From Lobosporangium transversale (Eukaryota), in assembly GCF_002105155.1 (NCBI RefSeq), contig NW_019029014.1, positions 124,001 to 188,000 of the forward strand: a stretch of DNA of 64,000 nucleotides, written 5' to 3'. A model generated the notes under the pieces. That model ran no database searches. It had not been told where the DNA came from and was given only the letters and a program-made list of their open reading frames with translations. Below are positions 13,618 to 61,003 of the stretch, one piece after another (the first letter of the stretch is position 1; every line of letters begins with the position of its first letter). A program made the position numbers and the translations under genes.

Positions 13618-14427
13618 TTACATGAAAGTGTCTTCCTGTTGACTTTTGTAAAGCCTAGCTGAAATCTTTTGCTTGTAAGCCTTGCTTGTAGCTCTGTCCT
13701 CAACAAATGGGAGGAAAGAAAGTTGTGGTCGGTTATTGTTAAATTTGTCATTAGCTGCGTTGAGACCCAAGGCAGCACTGAAGATTAGCTTGCGCATCAT
13801 GCCCGCAAGGAATCCTTGGCTGTGAAGAACTTTGTCCAAGTGGTTGGTGTCGTCGATAGACATCTTGACCACTGTGCTTCGCTTCATCTGATACTTTTTA
13901 AATGTTTTGTTGATCTCGTTCGGAGTGTTGTGTTCCATGTCATAGAGTAGGTTGACTAAACACACATTATCCAATAGACATTGGATCGCTCCTTGGCCTC
14001 CAAACACCAGTTGCTGATGGCACGCATCGCCTACAAGAACAATGCGACCATGATGCCAAGTCTTGTAAAGGCGTTCCTCTATATCGATTCGGGTGATATG
14101 CTTCCGTGGTGTATGACTCAAAAAATCACGTACGCTCCCCACGCCCATTGCACAGCGTGCGTTGAAGAGTTCTTGAAATTGCTCTTCAAAATCTGGCGCA
14201 GGAGCGAGCCAGTCATCGTAGATTTTAGGCTGTGGTGAAGGCGTATCATCGTTGTTGCCATAATTGGACGATCGTTGTTTAGATGATGGCAGCAATCCAT
14301 TGATACCCCAAGCGACACGGTCACCAGGCACTGGCGTGTACCAGAACTAGAAAGAGACAAATAATTATACATGTGTATAGAAATAAGGTATTAATATGAT
14401 TGTTGTTGAATGCATCGAAAGAAAGCG

Positions 14428-14463
<36 letters not shown>

Positions 14464-15341
14464 GCTAGAGCGTGCAGCTCATGTCCTTATCTCGCTTCAC
14501 CTACAGAGTAAGGTTGTTCCTTTGTATAGATCACTCTGAATTCTGAACATTCATCCGACACAGTGGGATAGTTACTCTGGCTAAGTGGATCTGAGAGGCC
14601 GGTGATGCAAATGTGTTCGTAGGTGGATGGTACCATATCAGCATCAGGCAATTTCCCTTGATCTGCTAATTGTTTAAACATGCATTGGCGAGTCAGACTT
14701 TGGGCGCCATCGGCGCCGACCACAATGTCACCATAATAGGTTGATCCATCTGAACACTTGCAAGAAACGCCATTAGGATTTTGAAGCGTTTCTACCACAA
14801 CCTTGCCTCGATGTAAATTTGTTGGAGGAACCCTTGACAGCAAAATCTTGTAAAACGCAGGTCGAGTCATGATCCGAAATGGATATCCATATCTCTCTTT
14901 CTCAGGACTTTCAATTCGACCTAGCTTTCGACACTCGCTATCGACAACACTCAAGCCTGAGATTGGCTTCGACGCCCTTTCAATTTGTTCTAGAAGGCCC
15001 ATTTGATCCAATAACCGCAGTACGGGCGGGCCCAGAGCAAGAGCTGCCCCTCTCCCAGCTTCGTCTTCGCTACAACGCTCCAAAATCTCATATTCAATAC
15101 CTGCTAAATCCATCATAATGGCGAGAGAGAGACCAGCGATACCACCACCCACAATCAAGGCTTTAATGGAATTGACATCTTTGCGGTGAGATATAGTTAG
15201 GATAGACATGTCAAATGGTGTAGCCTTGGACGGGTCCTCACACGCTTGCGGTGCGTGCGCTGGTGGAAGTGGCTTTAGCTTCGTACATTCATCGGATCCT
15301 AATGTGGAAGTTGATGCGTGTGCTTGAGATCGCTGACTCAT
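13618..15341 (-). CDS. FAD-dependent monooxygenase (FAD_binding_3 / UbiH-like), two exons
   Basis: GxGxxG motif IVGGGIAGL, VVGADGAQS, and GRIVLVGDACH...GGQGA; intron at about 14502-14348. Confidence 0.9.
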
Positions 15342-15880
15342 TTTGAGATGAGTGAAGATCTACTTGTCTTTAGAATAGTTTGGTCGAGACGTATAGGAAG
15401 AGTCGAACAAAAAATAATAATATGTTGCAATTGTTTTTTTGGATGAAGAATTCAATTAATGAGAATGGGTTACTTTGTTTGCTTGCTGAGCAAAAATAAA
15501 TATTCACAACCGAGCGCAACATATTTATTGTCATTGTTGAATGCAATGCTCTCATGCTCACTAACAGTACTACGTATGGTACTTTGCTCAAACAACATGC
15601 ATTTCTCAGATGATTCTTTATTTCTGCTTCTCTTGAGCTTTCATTTATACTTGCTATTTTTTTAATATTAATGTATTTTCCGTTTCACATCTGAACGGCA
15701 ACATGAAGGTGGTAGTGTAATCAAGATAGGTGTAACCATTGATGTGATACACCATGCAATTGAGGATTGTGCCATGCGATCAATTTTTTTTTAGCTATTA
15801 CTCTTACTTTTCATGGGAATGTTCCACACTGAGGGTTATTAGGTTTTACCACATCGTGATAGTCTGTGTATTTGTATTGT

Positions 15881-16028
15881 ATAGTCCGTCCCATTAAAAA
15901 ACGAGACATTCCATCTAGTGTTAAAAGAAGAAGTGTATTAGAACAAAGAAATAAAAAGTATTATCAAGCCAATACTTACAATTTTTTTAAGACGAAGGCC
16001 TTTCTGGACCTAGTCATGTTTGTAGTAG
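15881..16028 (-). ncRNA. Candidate Fanzor omegaRNA scaffold, copy 1
   Basis: Starts 8 nt after the stop codon of the RuvC gene. Homologous to 22659-22794 (+), with 65/73 ungapped identity over the 5' part. Predicted stems GAC-U-AGGUC/GGCCU-UC-GUC, UACAA/UUGUA, AAGUAUU/AAUACUU and GUCUCGUU/AAUGGGAC. Confidence 0.65.
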
Positions 16029-19000
16029 ATTGTGTCCTACTGTTGTTGCCGGCTTGTCTTTCCCCCTCCTCCTGGACCCAGCAAAGGTCCTTTCGGTGGT
16101 CTTGATCCCTCTACTCCTCCTCCTCCTTCATCTGAAAATTTCCTTTTTGTGGGTCTGCTACTACCACCACCACTGCCACCACTGCCACCACTGCCACCAC
16201 TACCTCCACCGCCGCCACTACCGCTAGAAGCTTGGCCTTGAGTTCCTCCGTCCGGCGGCATATATTTTGCAGGTCGTTTTTGCTCTCTTATCTGCGACTC
16301 ACAGACCCTTGCGATGTTCTCAGCACCAACAGCATCTCGATCAAAGTATGCTTTACAATTTCGACAGTACTTGGATCGAAAAGGAACATTCTCCAATATA
16401 CTGTCACAGTGAGGCCGTGGACACTTGGCAGATGTGTAGTATTCATGACAACCTGCAATGGGGTAGTCTAGAGATTTTGCCTGCTCGAGCCAGATTTAAT
16501 ACTCGTTAAAAAAGAGACTCAAAAATTAAATGTCATTGATCAAGGGATTTTTTTTTTTTTTTTACCTTTTCAACAAGCTTCTTCATCAATATCCCATGAT
16601 CCAAGCCCAATACAGATCACCGCATTCGTATTGGCATCTCTTCTTCTTCCATTGCTTCCGCCCGCAAGCTTCAGAATTGCCTTGATCACATAATCAACGC
16701 ATCTGTTCTGTGCTTTTCTAATATCCCAGCTATTCCGAACAAACCACCCGTCATTATAGAAATCGACAAGCGTCCTATATATAGTCTCCCTATTGTCGTC
16801 ACTGGTCCCAGATCTCTCTGCTCCACTACTACTACTGACCCTAACCCCACTACCAGAGAAACTACCTCCAGTACTTGATGGAGCTTGATTTGGCGGCAAG
16901 CTCATATAAGCGAAATACTGTGTTAAAGTAGGCCTTGAGAATGACGGAATATTGCTTTCAATCTCTGTAATTCCTCTTCTAAGCTTTCGCCTCTCTAGCT
17001 CGCCCTGAAACTTCTTGGATGGTTTGTAAAGGTACGCTCTAAAAATCCGGAGGATCTCACGTTCGTTAGGTTTCCTTGGATCCAACTTTGCAATTGTCAT
17101 CGAGTACCTCTCGCCTGGATCGATCCCAATACTTTCGGGGGGAGGGCATGCTGCCTGAGTGTCATATTTAACTTCTACATTCTCGAGGAGACGCGATCTC
17201 TGCTTCTAGTTGATCTCACGCTGGGGACTGGGACTCACCGGGGACAGTGGATTTGTGCTCGATGTACCTTCTTCAGCTGCTTCTTCTCCCTCGTTGCCAT
17301 CTAAGAATGGTTCATCGACTTCCAGCAAGTCAATATCGCTGATACCCAGCAAGATATCGTCATCTTCATTTCCGTCGTCGTCTCCATCATCACCACCATC
17401 GCCTGCACCATGGCCTGAAAACGAGGACCCCTGCTGAGCACTTGAAGAAGCCTGGACTGCTTGAGATCTTTGAGTATCCGAAGGTTGGGCAGCTTGCGAA
17501 CCTCTACCTCTTTTTTGCTTCGATGTGTCATAGGCAAGAAGTGTTAGGGTAAGGCCGTTTGTAAAGAACGATGTCCGTAGTTTCCTTCTAGGGCCATCAT
17601 CAGATTGCAGTCCAACGTCCTTGTATCCTTTCAAGGAAAACAGCTCCTGCAACAATATCCCCTTGTGGTTAAGGATCTTGTCCTCAGCAGCCCCCTTGGT
17701 ACTCATGTTTAGTTCCAACAATTGGACTATTTCCTCTCGAACTGTTGGGTTAGACGATAATATATCCAGGAGGCAGGCTTCCGTTAGGCAGAGAGACCAA
17801 GGTGAGAAAGCAGACGTAGGGAAATCCAGATATTTTTTGGCAGTTGCATTTTGCTCAAAAAAGAATTGGATGGAGCTTCTTCCATCGCCTGGAATATCTA
17901 TGTCAAATTAGACATTATATTGAAGAAATGATTAGGAACATTTCTATAAACATATTATAAGATAACCTCAAAATATTATAATATTATATTTTCCTGCGCA
18001 TTCCGATAGTGAGACCTTAGCGCTGCTTGAACAGGGACCATGACCATCCGATACGACTTGCTGATCACCAAATCGGGATAGATCTGGTTTAAAGGACCAA
18101 GCCCTGTCTTTGCATAGAAGTATTCGTATGCTTTGAGCTGGGACGGCTTGGCTACGTTCCCTTCGCCTTTTTTCTTCACTTCCCTGCTATACCTAGATAA
18201 TGGACTCATCACTCCGTGATACAACAACGCAGCAAGGCCGTAAATAAAGTCCCTGCTATCAAGAACTTCATCTAGGAGTTGTGGGAGATCAGCTGGATTG
18301 GATGGCCCAGTGGTAAGCAGGTTATCGATCCACAAGGCGCAGGCCCAGAAAGCTCGAATCCGTGCCTCATTCAACATTTTAATAAATGATTGAATGAGCC
18401 CTTGAATTGTTGCAGCAAGTTGCTCGGGATTGAGATTGGGATCGAAAGTAGAGTCCAGCTTGGCAACTACACATGTCTTTAACGTGCCCAGAGTTAATGC
18501 AACAGTGGGGTGGGCCCTCTTCAACCGTCGGTCCTCGGCAGTAGCCTCCTTCACTTTCCTGGTCTTATCAGTCTTTCTGTTATACTTGACCTTCCCTTTG
18601 TTCTTCTTTTTTTTCTTCTTTTCCTCCTTAACCTCCTCTTCTTTCTCATCCTCTTTTTTTTCCTTTTCCTTTTTTTTTGGGGGACTTTCTTTGACGGCTG
18701 GAGCTGACGGGACGGTCGTGTTGTTTGCAGTTGGTCAGGTCATTTTTCTTAGGGGAAAGTTCCTTTTTCTGGGTGCGATTCGGCTTTGCGCATTTAGGGA
18801 TATAGAATCTAATTAGGAACAACAATGTCAAGGGTTACAGGGGTTAGATGACTTTTTTTTTTTTTTTTTTTTTTTTTTGTATATGCTTTGGAAAATGTTC
18901 ATTTGAAGGAGCTTACCTGGGTTGAGGTTGATTATTTTTATTCTGGTACCTAGCAGCTATCGCAGTCCTCATTCTATCATGGTAATGAAGTAATCTTTCA

Positions 19001-19874
19001 GCGGTTGGTTGCTGCGAGGCCTGGGTTTGGATCCCACCAAAGAAAACATTAATTGAATGGTCAAACTGGCCTTCTGCAGGAGTTCGACGGCTACGGGCAT
19101 GGACCTCACGAACATATGATACCGTCAACTTTTCGGCATCAGTGTCAGTGAGCGCGGAGATAATCTCAGCATTTGTAGCAAGACCAAAGGTTGGGATATT
19201 TGGGGTGTAATCGTTATCGGATATAACGCCATAGACCAGGAGTTGACTGTCCCTTGAAAACCCAAGGGCTTGCAGGACCTCTTGTTTCTCATAGAGTGCA
19301 AACATGTGATGGCGACGAGGGATTGGACGAAGAACTCCTTTTATAGAAGGATAGATGAGAAGGTCAGAGTCCCCAGACACAGCGATACTGGTTGGTGTAC
19401 ATTTGGCGGCAATACACACATCAGCCTCATTTCTACAATGGCAAATCACAAAGTTATTGTATCGACCGAATGGCGCCGCGAGCTCCCTCTTCTCGTTATG
19501 ACTGAATGTGAAGAGCTGTCGAAGATTCTTTTTAATAGCAATCATATGGCTTCGAGATTCCCATTTGCCTTCATTGGACTTGGTTTCCATGTTGGCTATG
19601 AGCGTATCGAGTTTTGCATCCGCTGCTGTACGCTTAGCATCTCGGTCCCTATAGGCGCGCGTTTTTTCTTCGCAGCGAGGCCCATCAATGTGTATCGTCA
19701 CTGTGGCAAGAGGACCAAAGATTTTTCGAATGATACTAGCCATAGCATGGCCGCAGGCAGTGAAAGAACTCTGCCGGCTGAATCTCCTTAGGATGATATT
19801 ATGTATATCGCTGTGGAAAGTGCCAAGCAGATCCAGCTCAAAAGATGAATGGGGTTCAGCAGCAAGCTCATGTA

Positions 19875-21207
19875 CAGTCACCTAAAACAAAGATTGGACA
19901 AAAAAATAAAATATTGAAATAGTTACGTAGGGAAGCGTTTCCTTCAATCTCTTTCCTTCCTGTTTTTCACATACAAACAGCTTGAGTAAACCACCATGGC
20001 GAGACACTTAGACATTGAGAATAAAGGTATCATCGTTGGAATGCACCTCGCGGGCATGAAGGCTGCAGAAATCGCATTGCAACGCGGTGTACCCCGAACC
20101 TCTGTTATTAATATTATCAGGGTGTACCAAGAAAGAGGCACCACTGCTTGCACTCCGATCCCAGGACGGCCCAAAGTACTAAGTGAACGGGACCTCAGGA
20201 GCATCGTTCGCCATACTAAGCAGAATAGAAGGTGTACTCTTAATGATATCACTAACCAATTGCCGAACAAAGTTTGCGAGAGGACAGTTGCGAAGGCATT
20301 GCATTCACTGGGTATTTTCAGCCGGATTGCAGTAAAAAAACCATTCTTAAAAGAAGGACATATAAAAAGGAGGCTGCAGTTTGTCAAAAAATATATGAGT
20401 TGGTCCATGGAAGACTGGAATCGGGTAGTTTGGACTGACGAATCATTTGAAGTTGGTGAGCATTTTCGTCAAATAAGAGTTTGGCGTAAAGTAGAGGAAA
20501 AGTACGATCATGATTGCCTCGCACCCACTTTCAAAAGTGGTAGAACAACTCTGATGGTCTGGGGGGCGTTCACAGCAACCAGAAAGTCTCGGTTGGTTGT
20601 ATTTGAAAGAGGTCGTAAAGATGGACGGTGTTTCGTGGAAGATGTATATCAAGGCGAGCTAGCCAGATTTATGGCTGAGGTAGGGGATGGCATACTTATG
20701 GAGGATAATGCTCCAGTTCATACTTGTAAGATTGCAAAAGAATGGCGCGAAAAAAACAGCATCCCGAGGATTCCAGACTGGCCTTCATGCTCCCCAGATT
20801 TGAACCCTATTGAACATGTATGGTCACTTCTTGCGGATGCACTCGATAGGCGCGCTAAAGGGCCAAGAGATCTTCCCACTCTCACACGGGCTCTTATCGA
20901 AGAGTGGAATAATTTACCGCAAGAGAGGCTGGCCAGCCTTGTCGCTACCATGCCCGAAAGGCTGGAAGAAGTGAATGGGGTCGATGGTAGGAACACTCAC
21001 TATTGAACCTACATGGCACTTTTGCTACTCTAACAATGCCGTCTTCAAAACCCCAATAAATAACAGTATTGACCTCTTTAGTGAGCATGTAAAATTTCAT
21101 GTGTATTGATGAAGTCTTTATGTATGTTGCATATGAGCTGTTTGTCCAGGTTGTTCAAAAAAAAATCAAGAAAATCCATTTTGTCCAAACTTTATTTCAG
21201 GTGACTG
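19875..21207 (+). mobile_element. Tc1/mariner (IS630-Tc1) DNA transposon, 1,333 bp
   Basis: 29-bp TIRs at 19875-19903 (cagtcacctaaaacaaagattggacaaaa) and 21179-21207 (reverse complement cagtcacctgaaataaagtttggacaaaa; 3 mismatches). TA on both sides (19873-74, 21208-09). Internal transposase ORF. Confidence 0.95.
19996..21006 (+). CDS. Tc1-like transposase (HTH + DDE, D-D35-E spacing)
   Basis: HTH followed by GRPK; AVKKPFL; VWTDES; MVWGAF; MEDNAPVH; WPSCSPDLNPIEHVW. Intact 336-aa ORF. Confidence 0.95.
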   Translation: MARHLDIENKGIIVGMHLAGMKAAEIALQRGVPRTSVINIIRVYQERGTTACTPIPGRPKVLSERDLRSIVRHTKQNRRCTLNDITNQLPNKVCERTVAKALHSLGIFSRIAVKKPFLKEGHIKRRLQFVKKYMSWSMEDWNRVVWTDESFEVGEHFRQIRVWRKVEEKYDHDCLAPTFKSGRTTLMVWGAFTATRKSRLVVFERGRKDGRCFVEDVYQGELARFMAEVGDGILMEDNAPVHTCKIAKEWREKNSIPRIPDWPSCSPDLNPIEHVWSLLADALDRRAKGPRDLPTLTRALIEEWNNLPQERLASLVATMPERLEEVNGVDGRNTHY

Positions 21208-21273
21208 TACATCAATCTCCTTTGGTGGCAGGTCTCTCCTTGAAAGGTATGAATAGACTCCTTTAATACCCAT

Positions 21274-21497
21274 CTAGAGAAAGTATAGTGTAAAACAGTG
21301 CAAGCAATGTTGGTTTAAGCGGCTAAAGATTGAAGCTGAAGTTGTTAGAGTAGAGATAGTTTACCTTTAAGAAAGCAAAAAGTTATGATCTATGCGGGGA
21401 TGAGGGTGTAAGAGTACGGGTGAGAGCGCGAAAGCAATGTCGTTGTAAAATGAGAGAGAGAGAGAGGGAAAAGAGAGGGAGGCAGGACGTATTTATA
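21274..21497 (-). promoter_or_regulatory. Probable Pol II core promoter and 5'UTR intron of the PIN-Fanzor gene
   Basis: TATAAATA on the - strand (21497-21490), then a CT-rich tract; GTAAAC donor at 21364; tttctctAG acceptor directly before the ATG at 21273. Confidence 0.5.
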
Positions 21498-21699
21498 GGT
21501 GTATGAAAGAGAACGAAACAAAAGGCTGATGAATTTGGAACAACTCGAAACAACAAGATTCTCAGCGACAAGTTTTAACTTTTTGGATTTCGAGTATTGT
21601 TTACAGCTCTTCTCCAATCATCTACATTTACCAAATCAAGCCTTCGCCATGACAATCAACAAGAAATAAAAAAAATAAAAAAAAATAAAAAAAAAAAAC

Positions 21700-22300
21700 A
21701 GACTTCCTTACGTCCCCCCTCGGTATGTGTATCTGTCTGAACACGTCCTAACTGACATCCTCTCGACAACCCTTCCAAGGCTGCAGTGTTTGAATGTGTA
21801 CAGGGAACAAAAGAGGTCTAGATACAGGCTCTCTTTGTGACATTGAAGGAGATCGCATGTTTCATGGCTATCAAGACAAGGTACCCCTACAGGCACAAGA
21901 CAAAGGTATAACTCGGCTCAAACTCAAAGGAACGATTTTACCAATGGCCTTGTTATGAATCCACTTGCCTATGACACAGTCCAGACGAAGAGACAGCAGC
22001 AGTCTGACGTAGATGAAGAAGATCTCAGCCAGGAATTGAAACTTTCTCAAGGATTCCTTAACACGGCGTGTTTTAAAGGCAGCCGGTGAAGACCTGACAG
22101 ATGAAGACTACGCAAACATAAACTGGAAGAGGAGCCCCAAACTTCTTGAAAACGTTGGACTCATATTCCATGAGCTAGGGCGATGCTCATCTGCAAATAC
22201 CACAACTACCGTCTAATGCGATCCTGGTATTGTTAATGCCCTTACGTTTCTTCGCTAGATCGTCACAACCCTGACCTGCATCAAACGGTGAAGGTGAGAA
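21700..22300 (+). pseudogene. Second, highly decayed Fanzor-like paralog fragment
   Basis: Frameshifted peptides DFLTS..YLSEHVLTDILST, GYQDKVPLQ..RLKLKGT, FTNGLVMNPLAYDT and INWKRSPKLLENV..V*CDPGIVNALTF are colinear with the 17.9-17.1 kb exon of the - strand gene. Confidence 0.8.
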
Positions 22301-22658
22301 GTAGGCTCGTCAACAGCCTGTGTGCCTTATATGCGTTGCACCAATGCTCACTGACAGGTTGAGTCCAAACTCGAGATATCAAAATAGCCTTCGTTGAATC
22401 CATGGGGAGGAAAGACACCAAGCCGGCAACAACAATAGGATATGATCAGTTGCATATTTCACAGTACACGTGTTACATGAAAATTTATACAGACATACTA
22501 ACAGCTCTATGCCCCATGGTGTGGTGCCCGAGACAAACTTGCAGTTTTATTTTGATACAAATTTGGATAAATGCCCCATGGATGTGATGTGTGAACCCAC
22601 ATCCTATTCTCACTTCTGCTCCCTGGTTACTATTTGTCTGTCTAAAATTTTTCATGAG

Positions 22659-22794
22659 CTACTACAAACATGACTAGGTCGGGAAAGGCCTTCGTCTTGA
22701 AAAAGTTGTAAGTATTAGCTTGACAGTGCTTTCTTGACTAATCTCTTTATTTCTATGCTTGGTCTAGATGGTGTTTTTTTATGGGGAGGACTAT
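22659..22794 (+). ncRNA. Candidate Fanzor omegaRNA scaffold, copy 2
   Basis: Homologous to the reverse complement of 15881-16028. Lies 3' of the decayed paralog on the same strand. Substitutions fall in loops or create G-U pairs. Confidence 0.6.
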
Positions 22795-23419
22795 TTAGAC
22801 AACATATAGACCCCACATATCTTAATCATAATAAATTGGTTTGGTGGCATTGTTGTAAAAAATATCTTTGCTTAAGGGACAGAAAGATAGACACAATCAG
22901 GAAAAGGCAGGACAAAGAGTGTCAACAAGATTGACAAGAGAAAATAGAGTCAAATAACCTTGACTACAAACAGCGCCATAGAATGTCAAAAGAAAAGATG
23001 GGAGCTTTATAGGTGAGCTCACAAACTGAGTTACCGGAAGACAAATGCTTGTTGTGAAAAGGGGAAAAAGATAAATGGCAAGATGAACTGCGGGTGAAGA
23101 ATAAGACATGTGGGGAAAACTGAAGACTTTATTAAGAAGGAAGTTTCTTTGGCTTTTATACTCGGTAGTTTCTAGGTGAGGCGGACCCGCCTATGACTAC
23201 AAAGGGCTTTGCGCAAAGATTCCTTTAAGCTGGTTCGACAGATTAGTGGATACAAAATAAACTGAAGTTAATTTTAATGACCAGTCACACCACTTGCAAT
23301 AACAAGCGAGTCAATTGGCTGCCAATACATTTAAGAGTATTCAAAAAATATAAGGGATCGCGACGGGCTGTATATTTTTCCACTAACATGACAATATGTA
23401 GAATGAAGCTAAATTGAGA

Positions 23420-25218
23420 TCAGACCATACCAACACGTTTTTTTTGTCGTATACACATAGCAATGCTCAATATGGTGCTCAGTGTGCAGGCTAAAAATGA
23501 GATAAAAAGGGCCAGACGGAAACATCCGTGCCCTTTACATTCCTGTGGCTCTCCATCGACAACTGGTCGTGAAGCATCCATGACAATGCCAAACATAAGA
23601 TTGAACAATATACCACCCAATGCTGATCCCCAAGAGAGCCATCCCCTGTATTCACATGAAGCCGCAACCAACGAAGTATATGATAAACGAGTCAGTATCA
23701 TAGTTGTTCATTCGATTTCTGTAATATTTATACAGAGGCATGTAACTTACCAATTTTGCCCACAGACCTCAGTACCCCAGAGCTCTGCAACAATGGTGTT
23801 TGCGACTCCAAAGAACCCGCCATAGGCTAATCCTGCTAGGATTGAGCACAAATAAAACCAATTCAGCGATGCAAACATGCCTACGATTTGGGCTAGAGCC
23901 ATTACGACTGTTGCTGCAGGTATGAAGTAGATACGATGGGCACCATAACGACGGATGGCAATATCAGATCCAAATACTGAAATCATGCGTCCTATATAGC
24001 TTGATATGCTAATCAGCGCAACGTTAGCAGCCCTTATGGACGCGATAGGGCTCTTGTCGTCCGCGATACGGGTATGAGAAGTTGGTGAAGGGTATGAGAG
24101 CTCGGATCTCGCTACAGCATCAACCATGGCAGTAATAGAGTAAATAATCATCAACCCAACTCCCGAAAAGAACATCTTCGTCGCAAAGAATGCCTGTGCA
24201 TCTTTATCCAAGAAGAAATCCTTTCCACTGACAGCTATAACCTCATGTCGCCGAATATGGTTTGGTGAGCTATGAGCATTCGTGCTTATATCTTGAATTT
24301 GATCGTCCTGCAGCAATGGTGTCCGCTCATCCCTATTATGTCGGATCGGACCTGATTGCTGACTGTTATACGAGCTGCTCGTCTGTACGACTTCAACATC
24401 CTGGGTAAATTGCACATCTTGTCCTAAGTATATGGTCCGGGGTTCAGGCACAATTTTCAAACCGAAAGCTGCGAGGCCGTTAATAAGGCCTCCAGCAATA
24501 CCAAGGAAGAATAGAAACCGAGCCACATCCAACTCCAATGTCTCTTGCCAGATGCTCAGCTGCTCCTTGATTTTGATCATGAAGAATTGCTGAGAGATCA
24601 AAGTGAGTATTGCTGCAGACAGACCAAATAGACTGGAAACAATGCCTATCGAGCAGTTATTAGGGATGAGCGGATGAGAATGGATTGTGTGACAAAGTAA
24701 CATAAGTTCTTAGATTGCTAGAAGACATGTATGCGGATGGGCGTTGACAAACCAATGGCTATTCCGCGAATTTGCTTAGAATTCTTGGCTACAGCCGTAT
24801 ACGCTGCCATGTAGCTGGCGCTACAGCCTGCTCCTACCAAGCCAAGACATAGTGCCATGAGTAGGAAATGAGTGGGGGACTGACCCTGCTTGACTCTCTC
24901 GACACCAGTGGAGTAGCTTAGAGAGAGAAGACAGTATCCGAAAATAAATAGAAATCCGGCGATAAGAGAAGTCAAACGAGGACCAACTCGATCCGCCATG
25001 AAGCCACAGATAGGTCCCACACCATACATGCCAGCTTCACCAAGCGCAATGGTAGTGCTAATTTGGACTTGTGTATAGCCGAGGTGATGTGTGAAGTAGA
25101 ATGAATAGAGCCCAAATAGAAAAACTGAGCCGGCGGCCAACATGTTGAGGCATGCGCAGATGAAGGCCACTGCTTGGAGGAAGGGTATGCAGGCAGCAGA
25201 GAGATTTGGGATAGTCAT
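23420..25218 (-). CDS. MFS transporter (Nodulin-like / Mch1-like)
   Basis: Multiple hydrophobic helices; MFS motif GFMADRVGPR; GLAYGGFFGVANTIVAELWG; C-terminal CKGHGCFR. Three exons. Confidence 0.85.
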
Positions 25219-60545: not shown

Positions 60546-60598
60546 TATGCCCAAAACTCTGGACAGTACTCAAACCAAAGGTCCAGAATATTATTAGG

Positions 60599-60676
60599 GA
60601 GGCACCGACGCTCGATGTCCGACTCTAGGACGGTCCAAAGCACTAAATGAACGGGATGTCAGGAGAATAATGTGCT
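60599..60676 (+). mobile_element. Tc1 transposase remnant
   Basis: GTDARCPTLGRSKALNERDVRRIM aligns with GTTACTPIPGRPKVLSERDLRSIV of the 19996-21006 transposase; DNA similarity to about 20137-20210 is also visible. Confidence 0.65.
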
Positions 60677-61003
60677 AGACTTAACAAAGCAGCGGAGCTC
60701 AAGGATTTATACTTGAGCTACTATGGGCTTGAAGAGTGCGAACAAATGAAACGATTTTTGTCTCCGCAGCATAAAAGCGTATGTGATTCTGGTATGTCAT
60801 CCAAAAAGGGGTATATATGTTAGTAAAACAGATGATAAGCTAAGCGAATCAGCTAAGCATTTAGGGCGTATTGGCTCTTGAAGGCCCTTTTTAGTACTCT
60901 GGCAAATAAAGGATGCCCTTGATTCCGATGACAAAAAACAGTTCTTTAATTTTCATTTGAATTAAGGTGTAGATGCTAAACTTTTTTCTGGGTAAAATTG
61001 CAT

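Follow-up and report, generated by a model that had tools for sequence, protein, structure and literature searches.

A multicopy Fanzor1-type element of Lobosporangium transversale likely carries an intron-split omegaRNA scaffold at its right end

Two Fanzor-type coding sequences in the genome of Lobosporangium transversale are each followed by the same short repeat, which raises the question of whether this repeat is the scaffold of a guide RNA and, if so, what form that RNA takes. Both lie in a stretch of 64,000 nucleotides (nt) (RefSeq assembly GCF_002105155.1, contig NW_019029014.1, positions 124,001 to 188,000), referred to here as the window, in whose own numbering all positions are given. 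The original prediction, made from the letters alone, was that the repeat is a conserved, structured RNA of ~140 nt and a candidate omegaRNA. The identification as a scaffold agrees with the position of the repeat, the conservation of its first hairpin, and a terminal stem like that of SpuFz1, but the length of ~140 nt is not supported. In our judgment, the locus is probably where a multicopy Fanzor1-type element has its right end, and it would encode an omegaRNA scaffold that is split by an intron, spliced to a predicted two-hairpin form of ~82 nt, and followed by a guide taken from flanking DNA. The evidence consists of the repeat and the end of the element, together with splice signals, a contig that skips the intron and is continuous from the coding sequence to the element end, a relative that lacks the intron, and a protein family with a FEN1/XPG-plus-Fanzor architecture.

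Copy A of the repeat, read from 16028 to 15956 on the minus strand, and copy B, read from 22659 to 22731 on the plus strand, are identical at 65 of 73 positions without a gap, and BLASTN returned this pair (66/74, E 8e-21) as the top non-self match of the 64-kb window. The copies are in inverted orientation, 6.6 kb apart, and the motifs that had been described farther downstream were found in both. Re-checking the letters bore out that an AGGUC/GGCCU stem is kept while its loop has changed and that two A-to-G changes fall in a second candidate hairpin. The similarity reaches farther 5′ than first described (30 of 35 nt at the end of the open reading frame (ORF)), and this additional part is broken in B by an insert of ~200 nt. 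Both copies do lie 3′ of sequence coding for Fanzor, although the genes concerned are both broken. The two copies do not show covariation, since their differences are confined to a loop or to one partner of a pair, and the folding of a structured, unspliced ~140-nt RNA was weak (z = -1.55 in A, +0.73 in B). Around the stop codon of the gene preceding copy A, a motif AAGCCG...TAGGA is kept in the window at 16029-16060 (minus strand) and 22406-22445 (plus strand); it is also present in a third family, among loose contig ends, and in non-coding sequence of a metagenomic relative (L004:579-596). From the conservation of this motif, the RNA or its precursor may start 5′ of 16028.

The predicted length is not supported because it includes a GT-AG intron of 60-65 nt, which is skipped in a sequencing run that is probably RNA and is absent from the DNA of a relative. 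In copy A the intron spans 15915-15979 on the minus strand (65 nt; GTAAGT donor, CTAAT branch-like motif, TAG acceptor), and in copy B it spans 22708-22767 on the plus strand (60 nt; GTAAGT, CTAAT, TAG). A 519-nt contig of run X7, at a depth of 241.5, leads from the ORF to 15881 and skips exactly 15915-15979, which reads GT..AG on the sense strand. This exact skip was found in the one run guessed to be RNA (X7) and in none of the three DNA runs (X2, X4, and X5). The single-copy flank is covered in all three DNA runs and has no cover in X7, a result that fits the RNA nature of the latter.

Relatives from a metagenome scan (loci L001-L009) carry the same arrangement. In five of the nine (L002, L003, L004, L006, and L008), a donor directly follows the A-rich linker, and the introns measure 106, 99, 95, 96, and 78 nt, respectively. 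GTAAGT, CT[AG]A[CT], and TAG are all present in A, B, and these five loci, and across the family the introns (60-106 nt) have conserved ends and diverged interiors. The linker joined to GTAAGT, a motif derived from these sequences, occurs seven times in 198,992 nt searched on both strands, each time at the scaffold position (A, B, and the same five loci). The intron-less junction occurs once in the same 198,992 nt, again at the scaffold position: in the DNA of L001, the linker runs straight into ATGG, which is the junction seen in X7. Because L001 has this junction and L005 has the hairpin and the linker with no donor after the linker, the intron appears to be dispensable. We conclude that the scaffold intron is likely spliced out and that a small RNA of about 95-105 nt, guide included, is more likely than one of 150-170 nt. 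The second hairpin of the original prediction begins at the third base of this intron. Its pairing over the donor was equaled or surpassed at 17-62% of 47 control donor-like sites, and we therefore also rejected it as a conserved donor-masking structure.

The splice junction lies 57 nt past the stop codon in A, L002, and L003, 66 nt in L004, and 26 nt in L006. Nonsense-mediated decay can be set off when a junction is situated over about 50 nt beyond a stop codon, and this is one possible route to the release of the RNA. A second intron candidate was noticed in the loop of stem 2 at L002:547-642, L003:1797-1885, L004:755-835, and L001:1359 onward. In L002-L004 it has a GTAAG donor (GTAAGT...CTAAC), and the first AG after the branch is an unusual AAG; in L001 the second-site donor only is present, and the contig ends there. 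That L001 has only the second candidate suggests, as far as sequence goes, that a scaffold intron at some site is favored.

Splicing would leave a predicted working scaffold of two hairpins in about 82 nt. In copy A (minus strand), exon 1 (15980-16028) holds an A/C-rich leader, stem-loop 1 (15991-16015, in whose core 16011-16007 pairs with 16000-15996), and the A-rich linker, and exon 2 (15882-15914) holds stem-loop 2, closed by ATGG...CTAT, at the right end of the element. In copy B (plus strand), exon 1 (22659-22707) likewise comprises stem-loop 1 and the linker, and exon 2 (22768-22794) comprises a shortened stem-loop 2 with ATGG...CTAT, where the multicopy unit probably does not end. The first exons of A and B are identical at 45 of 49 positions. 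Spliced A, 82 nt from 16028 to 15882 and folded as 84 nt, forms two hairpins with a z of -2.44 (3/300 shuffles), compared to -1.53 for the unspliced form, and L002 with only intron 1 removed gave a z of -2.1. Folding recovered the closing stem 2 in A and L004 and produced a different second hairpin in L006 and L008.

Pairing in the first hairpin, a feature already proposed from the two copies, was supported across loci. In a sequence-only alignment of exon 1 from nine sequences, eight of them distinct, the 5-bp stem had 77.5% paired cells versus 59.5 ± 5.4 in shuffles (1/500) and a covariation score of 0.52 versus 0.22 (1/500), and the true register outscored all six slid registers. TAG/ATGG at the acceptor and CTAT at the end are invariant in all five aligned sequences (A, B, L002, L003, and L004), and the next two pairs of stem 2 switch together, by eye, between L004 and L002/L003. 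The hairpin, the linker, and the closing stem have been retained in loci with proteins only 43-81% identical to the C-terminal part of that of A.

Contig depth was used to place the end of the element. On the flank at 15560-15860, depth in the three DNA runs was 133.9, 8.2, and 9.3, and single contigs of the gene end reached 2765, 191.1, and 186.8, or about 20-23 times the flank depth; as depth is not copy number, about 20 copies is a rough figure. Toward the flank, depth falls from at least 20 times to the single-copy level at about 15880 in all three DNA runs, and the loose ends beyond it differ, which together place the right end of a multicopy element at about 15880. The same boundary is visible between L002 and L003, which are 94% identical up to CTAT(A) and unrelated beyond. 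Since the scaffold of SpuFz1 ends at CUA, the guide of copy A likely starts at 15881; by analogy with SpuFz1 we predict it at 15862-15881 (minus strand), in flanking DNA, at an assumed length of 15-20 nt. The last TA of the copy A end is likely, by the same kind of analogy, a target-site duplication. Differences between copies over window positions 15560-16150, mostly from single diverged contigs, were C>T or G>A in 4/5, 9/11, and 9/11 places (X2, X4, and X5, respectively), and this suggests a decay of copies that is driven by methylation or resembles repeat-induced point mutation.

Rather than a terminal repeat, copy B is probably a passenger that has a fixed guide and sits inside the multicopy unit of A. 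The Fanzor remnant before it (21718-22450, plus strand) is decayed and belongs to another subfamily. It retains WED-side motifs, a RuvC-I trace, and an A-like 3′ tail; it is 33-40% identical to Fanzor proteins over pieces of about 45 amino acids, and no RuvC-II, zinc finger/TNB, or RuvC-III was detected in it. The ~200-nt insert (22450-22657, plus strand), which separates the ORF tail from the scaffold, has imperfect inverted arms at about 22476-22496 and 22634-22656 and resembles a miniature inverted-repeat transposable element. A special fold of this insert was considered and dismissed (z -0.78 as a whole). Depths of B-type and A-type contigs were 192.7 versus 191.1 in one run and 181.3 versus 186.8 in another. 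The B-type contig, at about 20-23 times the depth of a single copy, extends for 139 nt beyond the aligned part, or ~68 nt beyond the end of B if it is colinear, a stretch of which only the 30 adjoining letters were verified. The sequence past the B scaffold (22794-22862) thus seems common to about 20 copies, all of which would then carry one fixed guide. At its 3′ end, B is 86-89% like A, whereas its coding remnant lies nearer to another subfamily. The original prediction had contrasted a conserved RNA with much more diverged proteins; the high 3′ identity is real, but because the 3′ end of B is more A-like than its coding remnant, the contrast may partly reflect chimerism or gene conversion instead of selection on the RNA.

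A number of observations weigh against a spliced scaffold at the end of a mobile element. X7 is RNA by the guess of a tool, splicing was seen in one contig of one run, and contigs give no strand, ends, or level. X7 also contains intron-retaining contigs of diverged copies (depths 8.85-54.1) and a contig of depth 102.8, left uninterpreted, that departs from the alignment before the donor. The intron of copy B was seen in X7 only in retained form (B-type contig, depth 16.8), with no spliced B-type contig among the listed X7 pieces. The nine metagenome loci came from 78 pattern matches, and six of the nine are from one metagenome; two were left out of the scaffold counts, L009 as a false match (E 3e-4) and L007 because no scaffold was seen. 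The spliced folds of B, L006, L008, and L004 had z values of -0.21, -0.31, +0.19, and +0.14, and the closing stem is missing from the predicted folds of B, L002, and L003; its columns, being invariant, carry no covariation. For stem 1, two of five pair measures did not rise above shuffles (85/500 and 111/500), the structure was taken from copy A, kinship can inflate the scores, and RNAalifold retained only three pairs (-0.49 kcal/mol). Rfam matches up to E 1 included no relevant family and one chance match on an A-run. Neither a convincing left end or terminal repeat matching the end of A, within 21.2-26 kb, nor a target motif was found.

Three other explanations were weighed. The unspliced form of ~148 nt could itself be the working omegaRNA, splicing being incidental or destructive as in IStrons, where splicing and guide are antagonistic (PMC13565253). 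The 150-nt omegaRNA of GtFz1, with its extra stems, offers a parallel, the first 25 nt of the intron are identical at 21 of 25 positions between A and B and could form a hairpin, and X7 has its intron-retaining contigs. Against these points, the intron is dispensable (the intron-less junction in L001 DNA and L005 without a donor), its interior is unconserved over 60-106 nt, the donor hairpin is no better than the 17-62% of control donors that equal or exceed it, and the unspliced folds are not significant. We regard a working unspliced form as unlikely.

An ordinary intron of the 3′ untranslated region (UTR) next to a transposon end without guide function, spread by duplication or gene conversion, or an X7 joint that stems from an intron-less DNA copy, is to our minds quite unlikely. 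It draws on the chimeric look of B, the death of both local genes, the intron-less DNA version that exists in the family (L001), and the guessed status of X7, but it does not account for a hairpin, linker, and closing stem that are kept across diverged loci with changes on both sides of pairs, for a layout that matches characterized fungal Fz1 omegaRNAs, or for the lack of intergenic flank in X7. We find it very unlikely that one 6.9-kb DNA transposon has A and B as its terminal inverted repeats and that the two are conserved as DNA and not as RNA. The copies are indeed inverted, face outwards, and both end in GGAC-TA, their contig depths are nearly equal, and the omegaRNA of Spu-1 overlaps a right inverted repeat (PMC10432273). 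However, the multicopy B-type contig goes on for about 68 nt beyond B if it is colinear with the window, so that B is probably not the terminus; each copy follows Fanzor coding sequence in the sense orientation; the 34 nt farthest out resemble each other less than the inner exon does, which is not the pattern of terminal repeats; Fanzor stop codons in unrelated loci are followed by the same layout; and the splice joint would be left unexplained.

The protein that an intact copy of gene A would encode is predicted to combine two nuclease-type parts. Gene A (16037-21273, minus strand) is a broken gene with introns that specifies a FEN1/XPG-type PIN nuclease and Fanzor1-type REC/WED/RuvC/TNB regions. 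Its PIN part is at 21273-21208 plus 19872-18916 (minus strand), its stop codon is at 16039-16037, and its last exon carries a Cas12f1-like_TNB zinc finger (E 3e-6). Apart from a mariner insertion, the lesions comprise frameshifts, one of them near 18740, along with a non-GT donor near 17990 and a stop at 17206-17208; relative to other copies, there are also small deletions near RuvC-I and before RuvC-II. The RuvC motifs of copy A are present, on broken frames. The closest named proteins to the RuvC-I-bearing piece are L. transversale gene models (78-88% identity), followed by proteins of Entomortierella and Benniella. The RuvC D-E-D triad with a Glu just before the zinc finger, as described in PMC13565253, is complete in 4 of the 12 close gene models.

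Profile A5 matched SpuFz1 (E 4.3e-6), and the PIN profile matched Rad2 (E 9e-15) and FEN1 (E 3e-12); profiles were needed, as single-sequence PDB searches with P0004 and P0009 returned linker-type matches only. Pfam did not detect the PIN domain of the window directly, and of 20 relatives scanned, 7 had XPG_I or XPG_I_2, all of them without a TNB match. The acidic residues D63, E149, D151, D168, D170, and D221 (P0002 numbering) are invariant or nearly so in 36 sequences. The structure model of P0071 (mean predicted local distance difference test score (pLDDT) 75.7, predicted template modeling score (pTM) 0.53) matched the FEN1/EXO1 fold (E 3e-9) and, at high root-mean-square deviation, SpuFz (1.7e-7) and PpFz (6.3e-7). 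Among the long relatives found with the PIN query, P0071, P0101, P0116, and P0159 also have TNB; these four are from Mortierella, Dissophora, Entomortierella, and Actinomortierella. Locus L006 has the PIN and Fanzor halves in one gene region, and full-length relatives measure about 1,050-1,360 amino acids. As judged by sequence and model, the family is a FEN1/XPG-type nuclease fused to a Fanzor1-type protein, with putative enzymatic activity. No relatives were found among 31 pattern matches in viral contigs and no loci among 7 in prokaryote genomes.

Characterized fungal Fz1 omegaRNAs are 75-90 nt long with two stems. SpuFz1, of the Spu-1 element of Spizellomyces punctatus, has its omegaRNA at the same place, the element right end, where the RNA runs 14-15 nt past the conserved 75-nt end (PMC10432273); its scaffold is 75 nt, ends in CUA, and by our reading closes stem 2 with UGG/CUA, as predicted here (PMC11423790 Table S3). 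A 3′ target-site duplication has been described as part of the scaffold (PMC13565253). In contrast to SpuFz1, the scaffold here is split by an intron, a word absent from the main text of PMC10432273; the relatives here, at about 1,050-1,360 amino acids with an N-terminal FEN1/XPG-type nuclease, are larger than SpuFz1 (638 amino acids); and the left inverted repeat of Spu-1 has no counterpart found at 21.2-26 kb. PpFz1 of Parasitella parasitica shares a short two-stem scaffold, an A-rich linker, and an AUG that starts stem 2; its omegaRNA was defined by yeast expression, and the available part of the source mentions neither splicing nor a PIN domain (PMC11423790). The published PpFz1 RNA has a donor-like CAG/GTAAGC in the loop of stem 2, a stem that is unusually short there, at the site where the second intron candidate lies here (PMC11423790 Table S3); this may be chance, and the RNA is functional as published.

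IStrons resemble the present locus in that one transcript serves both splicing and guide RNA (PMC13565253; 10.1101/2023.11.20.567912), but theirs is a group I intron, whereas here a short GT-AG intron is present, and taking it out is predicted to create the scaffold. Among Rfam matches up to E 1 there was no group I intron, which sets the locus apart from IStrons. CrFNuc of Chlamydomonas has introns in its Fanzor genes and a 3′-UTR-derived RNA, with none described within the scaffold in the part of the source available, which deals with the introns of the genes and their density and in which the word "spliced" does not occur (PMC10530073). With the 5′ nucleases FEN1, EXO1, and XPG (Rad2), the N-terminal domain shares, by sequence and model, its fold and acidic motifs, and its activity is putative; here it is fused to Fanzor within a mobile element.

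Taken together, the locus is likely a Fanzor1-type omegaRNA locus whose new features are the intron-split scaffold and the FEN1-fused nuclease. In the literature covered, which was partial, included few subscription journals, and excluded key supplements, we found no intron within a Fanzor guide scaffold, no Mortierellaceae Fanzors, and no PIN-Fanzor fusion. XPG, FEN1, and PIN do not occur in the available part of PMC10711439, and Table 1 of PMC3627910 lists Mucorales, with Mortierellaceae absent from the part examined. OmegaRNAs elsewhere in the literature examined are described as contiguous copies of an element right end.

In the mechanism that we propose, RNA polymerase II would read the Fanzor gene through the element end, the spliceosome would remove the intron and so join stem-loop 2 to the A-rich linker, the Fanzor protein would bind and protect the two hairpins, and the RNA would be trimmed to the scaffold plus 15-20 nt of flank-derived guide. 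Among fungi, the Ustilago telomerase RNA, a functional RNA that is cut out of a spliced mRNA at its 3′ UTR, offers a precedent (PMC9564094). The ribonucleoprotein would then cut empty alleles beside an AT-rich motif and favor re-copying of the element, as has been proposed for OMEGA systems (obligate mobile element-guided activity; PMC13565253), and the fused FEN1/EXO1-like domain would perhaps resect ends. Because both window genes are dead, their RNAs could serve only intact copies elsewhere in the genome. More tentatively, and as a possibility that we would not favor over its negation, the guide of Mortierellaceae Fanzors may be gated by splicing: the scaffold would exist only after one or two introns have left the 3′ end of the Fanzor mRNA, an intron in this region would be actively kept or regained (the second site in the stem 2 loop of L001-L004 being the example), and the FEN1/EXO1-like domain would trim RNA or resect cut DNA. 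If so, the nuclease, the end-processing enzyme, and the spliced guide would together make up a homing unit that is self-contained and that host splicing licenses.

If the intron-split scaffold is borne out, an RNA-guided nuclease of bacterial derivation would be tied to host mRNA processing through spliceosomal splicing, and there would be a handle on how eukaryotic omegaRNAs arise from RNA polymerase II transcripts. Expressing the genomic 3′ region in yeast, in E. coli, or in vitro would then likely miss or misdefine such scaffolds, so that in standard screens a large family of fungal Fanzors may seem to be inactive. Another feature open to testing is the FEN1-like domain that is joined to Fanzor.

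Gene A is also interrupted by a second mobile element. A Tc1/mariner element (19875-21207, plus strand) with terminal inverted repeats of ~30 nt and a TA duplication at 19873-74 and 21208-09 sits in codon 22. Its transposase ORF (19996-21006) is uninterrupted, with 336 amino acids and matches to HTH_Tnp_Tc3_2 and DDE_3. A TA-targeting transposase like that of mariner could move the Fanzor element in trans, but the mariner ends are unlike the Fanzor element end. A short mariner-related piece lies near 60589-60688. The neighbors are ordinary host genes: a flavin adenine dinucleotide (FAD)-dependent monooxygenase-like gene with FAD_binding_3 at 13618-15341 (minus strand), and a major facilitator superfamily (MFS) transporter-like gene with a weak MFS_1 match at 23463-25218 (minus strand).

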